DNA of 47,814 bases from Candidatus Poseidoniia archaeon (GTDB taxonomy: Archaea; Thermoplasmatota; Poseidoniia; MGIII; CG-Epi1). The stretch covers positions 1 through 47,814 of the forward strand of contig JAKURQ010000006.1 of assembly GCA_022449785.1 (NCBI GenBank), given 5' to 3'. The notes under the pieces were generated by a model. The model worked only from the letters and a program-made list of their open reading frames with translations. It had not been told where the DNA came from and searched no databases. The position numbers and the translations under genes are program-made. Shown here one piece after another: positions 10,251-12,460 of this stretch; within the stretch, counting starts at the first letter, position 1; each line of letters opens with the position of its first letter.

Positions 10251-11297
10251 ATGAACGGAATCGTAAGCTACGGTGCATATGTACCCAGTCACAAAATAGA
10301 AACTGGAGAAATAGCATCTGTATGGGGTGCTGATGGTAGTGCTTGGGCTAAAAATCTTAATGTCTACTCAAAATCAGTACCTGGCCCTGATGAAGATGTA
10401 ATAACCATTGCAGTAGAAGCTACAAGACAAGCAATGAAAAGAGCCAATTTGAATGGTGATTTAATTGGTGCTATTTACACAGGTTCTGAGTCTCATCCTT
10501 ATGCAGTAAAACCAACTTCAACAATTGTAGCAGAAGCAATTGGAGCAACGCCTAATCTGACTGCTGCAGATTTTGAATTTGCATGTAAAGCAGGTACTGC
10601 AGCAATTCAAACTTGCTTAGGAATGGTTGGAGATAAACAAATAGATAATGGAATTGCAATCGGTGTTGACACCTCACAAGGTGCACCTGGTGATGCACTA
10701 GAATATAGTGCCTCGGCAGGAGGTGGTGCACTGGTTATCGGTACTAAAAATGTAATCGCAAAAATTAATCATACTACTTCCTATACTACTGACACTCCTG
10801 ATTTCTGGAGAAGAGAAGGTCAAAAATATCCCAGACATGGAGGAAGGTTTACTGGTAAACCTGCATTTTTCAAGCATGTAGTAAGCTGTGGAATGATGAT
10901 GATGCAAAAAGCAGGTACTGAAGCAAAAGATTATGATTATGTTGTAACACACCAACCAAACGGAAAATTTCCAATCAGGGCTGCAAAGACCTTAGGATTT
11001 ACAAAGGAACAATTTGAAACAGGATTGTTAACTCCTAGAATTGGGAATACATATTCTGGGGCTGTTTTCTTGGGACTTGCAGCAATATTAGATATAGCAA
11101 AACCAGGTGATAGAATATTAGCAGTAGCTTATGGATCTGGAGCTGGAAGTGATGCTTTCGATATAACTGTTACAGATGAAATAGCTAAAATGGATAGAAG
11201 TGAAACAGTAGAAGAATTAATCTCCAGAATGAAAATTGTAAATTATGCAACATATGCTAAATATAGAGGCAAACTCAACATGGGGGCTTCAAAATGA
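10251..11297 (+). CDS. Hydroxymethylglutaryl-CoA synthase (archaeal type)
   Basis: [19 protein letters not shown] (catalytic Cys), [38 protein letters not shown] at 10240-10245. Confidence 0.95.
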
Positions 11298-12460
11298 GAG
11301 AAGTAAGTATAATTGGAATAGGAATAACCAAATTTGGCGAATTATGGGATAAATCTCTTCGCCAATTAGGCCTTGAAACTGGCCTTGCTGCAATCAGTGA
11401 TGCAGGAATTACAAGTAAGGATATTGATGCATTGTACATAGGAAACATGGCTGCAGGATCAACTCTTCAACAAGAACATGTCAGTGCTTTGATGGCAGAT
11501 TATTGTGGATTAGCCAGTCAAAATATACCTGCCACAAGAGTCGAGGCTGCATCTGCATCAGGTGGTTTAGCAGTTCGCCAGGCATACATGGCTATTGCAG
11601 GAGGATTCATAGATATTGCAGTTGTTGGTGGTGCTGAAAAAATGACTGATGTAAGTGACTCTGAATCATCATATACTGTTAGTATGGGATCTGATGAACA
11701 ATGGGAATCAAAAGCTGGAGCAACATTTGCATCTTTACATGCAATGATGACCCAAAGTCATATGGCTGAATATGGAACAACAAGAGAAGAACTGTCAGCA
11801 GTATCTGAAAAGAATCATTTTCACGCCTCAATGAATCCAATGGCTCAGTTTCCGTTTGCAATAAGCGCTGAAGCGGTGTCAAACTCGGGAATGGTCTCAA
11901 GTCCACTAAGAATGCTTGACTGTGCTCCAAACAGTGACGGGGCTGCGGCAATTGTTCTCTGTGCTACAGAAAAAGCAAAGAAATACAAGAAAAAATCGAT
12001 TAAAATCATAGGATCTGGTCAAGCTTCTGATACTTTAAGTTTGCATCATCGTAAGCACCTAAATCAAATGCCAGCAATAAGAATGGCTGCTAAGAGAGCG
12101 TTCAAAAGTTGTGGTAAAAAAGCTAGTGACTTAGACTTAATAGAAATACACGATAATTTTACAATCTCTGAGATTATTGCATTGGAAGAAATAGGTATAT
12201 TCAAGAGAGGAAAAGCCGCTCAAAGTATATTGAAAGGCGAAACTAAACTTGGTGGTAAAATTCCAATTAATACGAGTGGAGGTCTAAAAGCAAGAGGTCA
12301 TGCACCTGGTGCAACAGGAATTGCCCAAGTCGTAGAGATTGTGCAACAGCTTAGGGGTGAAGCCGGAGATAGGCAAGTTAAAAATGCAAAAATTGGAATG
12401 GTAGAGAACCATGGAGGAACTGCTGCAACTGCAGTTGTTCATATTTTGGAGGGTGAATAA
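11294..12460 (+). CDS. Acetoacetyl-CoA thiolase family protein (archaeal/SCP2-type) with both catalytic Cys substituted
   Basis: [35 protein letters not shown]; lies between HMGS and DUF35. Has EAASASGG and HDNF in place of EAACASG and HDCF. Confidence 0.9.

Follow-up and report, generated by a model that had tools for sequence, protein, structure and literature searches.

What does a thiolase contribute to the mevalonate pathway when it lacks both of its catalytic cysteines? The question is raised by a thiolase-like gene in a 47,814-nucleotide stretch of DNA (contig JAKURQ010000006.1 of assembly GCA_022449785.1; the whole stretch is called the window) from a Candidatus Poseidoniia archaeon of the MGIII group, in which the gene lies between those for an archaeal-type HMG-CoA synthase (HMGS) and a DUF35 protein. 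The complex of thiolase, HMGS, and DUF35 is the textbook entry to archaeal membrane-lipid synthesis, and the published rationale for it is channelling of the unfavorable thiolase reaction. Such a complex from M. thermolithotrophicus was reportedly described by Vogeli et al. in 2018 (PDB 6ESQ and 6ET9). An earlier note on this DNA, made from the letters alone, had proposed that the gene encodes a pseudo-thiolase retained as a scaffold or CoA binder. Our analysis of the protein, its relatives, its partners, and the other thiolases of the source genome (an assembly of 1.04 Mb, 86% complete) leads us to regard that proposal as probably correct.

Results

Both catalytic cysteines are replaced in an intact gene

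The thiolase-like open reading frame (ORF) is intact and encodes 388 amino acids (aa). The features of the locus, all on the forward strand, are as follows:

10251..11297, +: archaeal-type HMGS of 348 aa with preserved catalytic motifs
11294..11297, +: HMGS stop and thiolase-like start overlapping in ATGA (translational coupling)
11294..12460, +: putative pseudo-thiolase subunit of 388 aa with a thiolase fold, in which the nucleophile Cys and the HDCF Cys are missing
11552..11554, +: codon 87 (TCT, Ser), aligned with Cys85 of 6ESQ, the Cys that accepts the acyl group
12149..12157, +: codons 286-288 of the HDxF motif, with His286 and Asp287 retained and Asn288 in place of Cys
12155-12157, +: codon 288, AAT = Asn, within EIHDNFTI
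12299..12301, +: codon 336, His of the GHx motif (RGHAP), present in MGIII but missing from many of its sister lineages
12458..12462, +: thiolase-like stop and DUF35 start overlapping in TAATG
12460..12909, +: DUF35/OB-fold protein of 149 aa, a scaffold protein whose zinc ribbon is degenerate and whose C-terminal tail is acidic

The three genes are thus co-directional and overlap at each junction. The earlier note had spoken of a mevalonate operon; this label is generous, because only the HMGS, thiolase-like, and DUF35 genes are joined there. The neighbors are LonB, a pantoate-kinase-like gene, and an arginine decarboxylase.

In a phmmer search the thiolase-like protein matched the M. thermolithotrophicus thiolase (6esq_A) end to end (residues 1-386, E = 2.3e-98, 332.9 bits). 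In the alignment, Ser87 (EAASASG) stands opposite the Cys of EAACASG, and Asn288 (EIHDNF) opposite that of EVHDCF. Direct reading of the codons, TCT at 11552-11554 within EAASASGG and AAT at 12155-12157 within EIHDNF, agreed with what the earlier note had described, as did the uninterrupted frame and the count of base changes: one is needed to go from Cys (TGY) to Ser (TCT), and two from Cys (TGY) to Asn (AAT).

The nucleophile motif of the protein therefore reads SAS in place of CxS. The essential His of the HDxF motif is present in H286-D287-N288-F289, where His286 corresponds in the alignment to H284 of the M. thermolithotrophicus enzyme, and the second Cys of HDCF is replaced by Asn288. 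The His of the GHx motif is also present, as His336 in RGHAP. Passages of a recent paper (PMC12960953, Nat Commun 2026) give the second motif as HDxF and its His as the residue proven to be essential, H284A yielding no HMG-CoA. The Cys of this motif is not universal, as a solved structure named acetyl-CoA acetyltransferase (7yvy) reads HDAF there; position 288 is Cys in 97% of 40 HMGS-linked thiolases that retain the nucleophile.

Family models placed the protein among the thiolases. The Pfam domains Thiolase_C_1 (152 bits) and Thiolase_N (75 bits) both exceeded their cut-offs, and so did the NCBIfam subfamily model NF004720, "thiolase domain-containing protein" (498.8 bits, cut-off 420). The NCBIfam equivalog model NF053570 (AcCoTHIOL_METTL), which derives from the M. 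thermolithotrophicus acetyl-CoA acetyltransferase, gave 499.9 bits, below its cut-off of 600.

The substitutions are reproducible and the gene is under purifying selection

Contigs from two DNA runs of two other studies span both codons and show no difference there. Among the best 120 relatives in a collection of 5.8 billion proteins, none had Cys at either site: 71 had Ser/Asn, 42 had Gly/Asn, and 7 were fragments showing one site only (Ser or Asn). The Cys-less trait extends, down to 60% identity, to hundreds of proteins in the database. Across 24 genomes from the source genus, Ser87 is encoded by TCT (12), TCA (8), TCG (3), or TCC (1), and Asn288 by AAT (18) or AAC (6). The earlier argument against sequencing error, which rested on the number of separate changes, is strengthened by the matching codons in contigs of other studies, the absence of Cys from the 120 relatives, and this synonymous variety.

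The ratio of nonsynonymous to synonymous substitution rates (dN/dS), a check that the earlier note had suggested, was determined by the Nei-Gojobori method within the genus. Median pairwise values for the thiolase-like gene, HMGS, and DUF35 were 0.045, 0.034, and 0.068, respectively; these values are rough, because dS within the genus is near saturation (median ~1.7-1.8; 66-76 pairs dropped). With dN/dS far below 1, purifying selection on the thiolase-like gene is strong, nearly as strong as on HMGS. Three contigs from an RNA library matched the operon at 99% identity or more; as DNA carry-over is possible, they hint only weakly at transcription.

Distribution and origin of the Cys-less form

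The aligning of HMGS-linked thiolases across Thermoplasmatota, also suggested earlier, was performed as a survey of 80 loci with one genome per species. HMGS lay upstream of the thiolase-like gene in 76 of the 80 loci and DUF35 downstream in 75. The nucleophile Cys was present in 41 loci and absent from 39. Cys-bearing loci also keep HDCF and GH; they came from Micrarchaeota, Methanomicrobia, Methanoperedens, Aenigmatarchaeota, several bacterial phyla, and a few Thermoplasmatota. Cys-less loci came from MGIII (Ser/Asn/His), Methanomassiliicoccales, Methanomethylophilaceae, and many metagenome-assembled genomes (MAGs) labelled "Thermoplasmata". Outside MGIII the nucleophile position of these loci holds Gly, rarely Asp or Glu, and the second site mostly Asn.

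Within MGIII the pattern was uniform. All 23 full loci and one partial locus of the source genus had Ser/Asn, the Ser/Asn/His set was found in all five genomes examined from two sister genera within its family, Ser/Asn was found in both genomes of a second MGIII family, and RGHAP was retained in every MGIII row. Over all 42 Cys-less rows, the nucleophile position held Gly (30), Ser (9), Asp (2), or Glu (1), and the position of the GH His held His (16), Gln (15), Asp (4), Asn (2), Tyr (2), or another residue such as Phe (3).

A maximum-likelihood tree was built with IQ-TREE from 85 rows, with three MGII paralogues as the root. In it, 41 Cys-less rows formed one clade with support of 99/97, which makes the loss clade-wide; where labelled, its members are Thermoplasmatota or Methanobacteriota, with the exception of two gut bins. 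Taking all 42 Cys-less rows together, one change of state sufficed (support 64/73; one to two changes in the 5-95% bootstrap range). The loss of Cys thus appears from the tree to be old and to have occurred once or twice, deep in Thermoplasmatota, and MGIII, with its Ser and both His residues, appears to be the least decayed branch. In the wider family, ~46 of the best 150 representatives of clusters at 50% identity had no nucleophile Cys, with Asp, Gly, Ser, Pro, Asn, Glu, Ala, or Gln in its place. Cys-less SCP2-type thiolase homologues are therefore a large, common, and mostly unstudied population.

Three other observations were made in the survey. Isolate contigs filed under Bacteroides ovatus and Dialister hominis carry an HMGS/Cys-less thiolase/DUF35 operon of the Methanomethylophilaceae type that is nested in the archaeal clade; these contigs are probably mis-binned archaeal DNA in gut assemblies. 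In the Methanomassiliicoccales MAG UBA280, which lies inside the Gly/Asn clade, the nucleophile site holds Ser and the other two motifs read HDCT and GY, a mixture that may represent a partial reversal or an independent path. Finally, bacterial MAGs (Aminicenantes, Zixibacteria, Acidobacteriota, Calditrichota, Bacillota, and others) have an archaeal-type operon with intact catalytic residues, and these bacterial HMGS/thiolase/DUF35 operons form one well-supported clade.

The two halves of the Poseidoniia, MGII and MGIII, differed in their HMGS. The archaeal HMGS was found in all 20 MGIII genomes sampled, including the source genome, and the Cys-less thiolase partner was found downstream of it in every MGIII locus examined. 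None of 41 MGII genomes had the archaeal HMGS; the archaeal-type HMGS/thiolase/DUF35 operon is missing from MGII. Instead, 38 of the 41 had only a stand-alone HMGS of 517-525 aa, ~30% identical, nearest to the haloarchaeal/bacterial type, and below all NCBIfam cut-offs; the other three had no match. In one MGII family, none of eight genomes had a thiolase-like match at E ≤ 1e-20. On these gene contents, MGII and MGIII thus enter the mevalonate pathway with different enzymes, and within Poseidoniia the archaeal HMGS and the thiolase-like gene occur together.

Conserved and altered positions

Alignment columns were compared between 40 Cys-bearing HMGS-linked orthologues and the 42 Cys-less rows. 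Of 107 columns that are at least 95% conserved in the Cys-bearing set, 70 hold the same residue in at least 90% of the Cys-less rows. The columns with the greatest change were C87, which was never kept (0%); S211, kept in 5% and replaced by Ala in 40 of the 42 rows; C288, kept in 5% and replaced by Asn in 32; P146, kept in 14% and replaced by Ala in 25; A132, kept in 24%; Y149, kept in 29% and replaced by His in 22; V338, kept in 36%; and H336, kept in 38% (16 of 42).

The HMGS and DUF35 partners

HMGS retains its catalytic residues, as the earlier note had said of its Cys: the protein matched 6esq_I with 491.9 bits, and the Glu, Cys, His, and Asn motif residues are identical at the aligned sites. 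It also exceeded the cut-offs of both NCBIfam archaeal equivalog models (NF003274, 540.9 bits versus 244; TIGR00748, 535.2 versus 353.35). It was the single HMGS match in the source genome, and no other was found there. HMG-CoA reductase is present in this genome as well, and together these results indicate that the operon still feeds the mevalonate pathway.

The DUF35 protein matched 6esq_E (98.4 bits) and the Pfam domain OB_ChsH2_C (72.3 bits). Its zinc ribbon has only the first of four Cys left, the other three having been lost. The CxxC...CxxC arrangement of 6ESQ and most relatives survives in full in one sister genus, the second MGIII family, and other Thermoplasmatota; in the source genus and a different sister genus it is cut to the first Cys. 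In the source genus the protein also has an acidic C-terminal tail of ~20 residues.

A complex prediction with HMGS, DUF35, and the thiolase-like protein, using 25 alignment rows for each, scored 0.91, against 0.76 for a control with HMGS replaced, and carries no weight for or against binding.

Canonical thiolases as a probable source of acetoacetyl-CoA

A search for other thiolases, which the earlier note had recommended, found two canonical enzymes in the source genome, each with the full C...NEAF...GHP...CxGGG set. The gene on contig C51 is followed by a short-chain dehydrogenase gene, and that on contig C89 adjoins a gene for 3-hydroxyacyl-CoA dehydrogenase, an enzyme of β-oxidation. Of 41 MGIII genomes, 39 had a homologue of the canonical thiolase (E ≤ 1e-40); the two without one are 65% and 64% complete.

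Canonical thiolases (PF00108, more than 300 bits) were also found in all five other genomes with the Cys-less form (Methanomassiliicoccus, Methanomethylophilaceae, and Thermoplasmata), where they were 43-51% identical to the C51 enzyme. Among genomes with the Cys type, they were found in two of five Thermoplasmatota and one of five other archaea; all three samples are small and related, and of unknown completeness. A second thiolase accompanies every Cys-less form seen, yet it is not confined to such forms.

The source genome also encodes two acyl-CoA carboxylase carboxyltransferases (C16:12840-14297 and C5:19257-20681; 668.9 and 525.2 bits to PF01039). One of them could belong to a leucine/methylcrotonyl-CoA route that gives HMG-CoA without thiolase or HMGS.

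Neighboring genes

Upstream of the operon, a gene at window positions 9561-10241 (+) stops 10 bases before the HMGS start. Its 226-aa product has an HTH_3 domain at the N terminus and had no NCBIfam match, and it is possibly a regulator or a fourth member of the operon. Downstream, beyond LonB (12958-14910) and 2 kb from this CoA-thioester operon, lies a GHMP-kinase gene at window positions 14907-15722 (-). Its nearest model was the archaeal pantoate kinase of CoA biosynthesis (112.8 bits, below the cut-off of 380).

Discussion

We favor, as the probable explanation, a pseudo-thiolase: the gene would encode a subunit that serves the structure and the CoA site of the HMGS complex, and canonical thiolases would perform the chemistry. 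The residue losses, their conservation across the clade, the purifying selection, the operon coupling, and the co-occurring canonical thiolases are observed; the inactivity of the subunit, its place in a complex, and the route of acetoacetyl-CoA are inferred. The scaffold or CoA binder of the earlier note draws its support from the clade-wide loss, the selection, and the two canonical thiolases. The gene has the marks of a pseudoenzyme, namely loss of an indispensable residue, purifying selection, and long retention, and its product is presumed to be inactive.

Such a protein would be unable to form the acetyl-S-enzyme intermediate or to deprotonate a second acetyl-CoA, and so it would make no acetoacetyl-CoA. 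This substrate would be supplied as a free metabolite by the canonical (bacterial-type) thiolases encoded elsewhere. That acetoacetyl-CoA comes from elsewhere had been suggested in the earlier note, and the canonical thiolases, one of them beside a β-oxidation dehydrogenase gene, fit that part of the suggestion; the route itself is what we would predict from them. The archaeal-type HMGS would work only within the HMGS/thiolase/DUF35 assembly, to which the thiolase subunit, by analogy with the M. thermolithotrophicus complex, would give architecture and part of a shared CoA-binding chamber. Passages of PMC12960953 report that archaeal HMGS expressed alone was inactive, that the acetyl-CoA acetyltransferase (ACAT) alone was insoluble, and that the HMGS-ACAT interface holds a fused CoA-binding site. 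If the same applies here, an HMGS that is inactive alone and shares its CoA site would need a thiolase-fold partner, whether catalytic or not, and we infer that the subunit was kept because HMGS functions only inside the three-protein assembly. The contrast within Poseidoniia between MGIII, in which the archaeal HMGS comes with the Cys-less partner, and MGII, in which HMGS stands alone, agrees with this view.

Several points weigh against a pseudo-thiolase. The replacement residues (Ala211, Asn288, Ala146, and His149) are themselves conserved and do not show random decay, which could reflect a new function rather than none. MGIII keeps Ser87, His286, and His336, from which weak Ser-acyl chemistry is conceivable, and Cys-to-Ser mutants of thiolases retain a small residual activity. 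The canonical thiolases, being present in three of the ten Cys-type genomes too, are permissive and not diagnostic, and the near saturation of dS leaves the selection estimate coarse. Finally, as far as passages of PMC12960953 go, the need of HMGS for its partners is known from one organism.

The first of these points leads to an alternative that we consider unlikely, in which the pocket (His286, Asn288, His149, and Ala211, with or without His336) has acquired a cysteine-independent reaction on a CoA thioester. Candidate reactions are decarboxylation of malonyl-CoA to feed the condensation, an aldol or retro-aldol reaction like those of Ltp2 and Sal, and active capture of free acetoacetyl-CoA for hand-over to HMGS. 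The new residues in the replaced columns, led by Ala211 in 40 of 42 rows and Asn288 in 32 of 42, speak for such a change, and Cys-less members are common in the family (46 of the 150 best cluster representatives). Some Cys-less relatives are enzymes, since passages of PMC12329534 describe Ltp2 and Sal as aldolases and TbSLP as a weak malonyl-CoA decarboxylase; however, the Tyr that in the same passages is the signature of Ltp2, Sal, and SLP (YDHF, YDCY, YDCF) is absent here, where the motif is HDNF and no Tyr stands first as in YD(H/C)(F/Y). The two carboxyltransferase subunits mean that carboxylated acyl-CoAs may be available. On the other hand, His286 and Asp287 are the only candidate catalytic residues that are constant in the Cys-less clade, with His336 present in 16 of 42 rows and residue 87 varying between Ser, Gly, Asp, and Glu. 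A free-standing new activity, moreover, would not need the HMGS-DUF35 operon, from which the gene is never separated. A related version, to which we likewise assign a low chance, is that the remodelled site, with its conserved residues His286, Asn288, Ala211, and His149, captures a free acyl-CoA, either acetoacetyl-CoA or a carboxylated precursor that it decarboxylates, and passes it through the CoA chamber to HMGS. If this were true, the entry to archaeal isoprenoid lipids would be rewired across MGIII, Methanomassiliicoccales, and other Thermoplasmatota.

A second alternative, that the protein is still an acetoacetyl-CoA thiolase that uses Ser87 to form an acetyl-O-Ser intermediate with the assistance of His286 and His336 and so keeps the channelling from acetyl-CoA to HMG-CoA, strikes us as distinctly improbable. 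The changes in MGIII are limited to the two Cys, with the HDxF His, the GHx His, and most conserved columns remaining, and Ser87 is held by selection through four synonymous codons. Relatives in the same clade, however, have Gly, Asp, or Glu at this position, often without the GH His, and keep both the operon and the sequence conservation. Gly is incapable of acting as a nucleophile; the retained function would thus need none. Moreover, the Cys proposed as the general base is Asn, which is unable to deprotonate acetyl-CoA, and canonical thiolases are found throughout the MGIII order. In the related aldolase CtSal, according to passages of PMC12329534, a Cys-to-Ser change at the site equivalent to that of HDCF abolished activity. 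The Ser-based mechanism that the earlier note had held in reserve is therefore disfavored for the clade, and it is conceivable for MGIII alone, in which both His residues are kept.

The last alternative, an assembly or sequencing artefact or a truly decaying pseudogene, has nothing beyond the unusual residues to recommend it and is ruled out by the intact ORF, the identical codons in contigs from other studies, the absence of Cys from all 120 relatives, the dN/dS of ~0.045, and the sharing of the trait by hundreds of database proteins down to 60% identity, with the RNA-library contigs as weak further evidence.

If the thiolase is dead across MGIII, the Methanomassiliicoccales (methanogens of the gut), and many other Thermoplasmatota, then the public annotations of these proteins as acetyl-CoA acetyltransferase are wrong, and metabolic reconstructions resting on them fail at step one. 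These archaea would rely on bacterial-type thiolases for their lipid precursors, which bears on the debates about bacterial genes in the lipid metabolism of Thermoplasmatota. We found no description of a dead HMGS-linked thiolase in Thermoplasmatota in the full-text literature, although subscription papers or supplements could hold one.

Comparison with known systems

The M. thermolithotrophicus thiolase and the protein described here share the same fold, length, and HMGS-thiolase-DUF35 gene order, and here HDxF keeps its His and Asp and GHx its His. They differ in the replacement of the nucleophile Cys by Ser and of the HDCF Cys by Asn, and in S211A, P146A, and Y149H; the DUF35 partner here has, in addition, lost three of the four zinc ligands of its M. 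thermolithotrophicus counterpart.

The likeness to Ltp2, Sal, and the T. brucei SLP, as these are described in passages of PMC12329534, consists of the SCP2-type thiolase fold, the absence of the nucleophile Cys, and the association with DUF35. According to the same passages, the catalytic Tyr of the Ltp2 and Sal aldolases stands in YDHF or YDCY, their substrates are steroid side chains, and they have no link to HMGS, whereas the motif here is HDNF. The uncharacterized Cys-less structure 4YZO, matched with 220.6 bits, reads TSGSGG at the nucleophile motif. Type II polyketide synthases offer a further parallel in their chain-length factor, which is a member of the thiolase superfamily, lacks the active Cys, and is obligately partnered with an active paralogue. 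Its branch of the superfamily is another one, however, and the partner here is HMGS, bridged by DUF35, rather than a homologous ketosynthase.

A parallel in design is with PhlACB (PpATase), MucABC (SmaATase), and the PfACAT/HMGS-DUF35 complex of P. fluorescens, which, in the passages of PMC12960953 that deal with them, have the same tripartite architecture and keep one dead subunit. In complexes of the PhlACB/MucABC type, however, the dead subunit is the HMGS-like one, which has lost its E-C-H-N tetrad, and ACAT keeps its Cys (same passages); the arrangement in MGIII, with HMGS intact and the thiolase presumably dead, would be the mirror image. Unlike these bacterial derivatives, the MGIII complex presumably still serves primary isoprenoid metabolism. 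If the pseudo-thiolase explanation is correct, the Cys-less archaeal operons would be a natural experiment on the retention of a catalytically dead subunit, complementary to that provided by PhlACB and MucABC.

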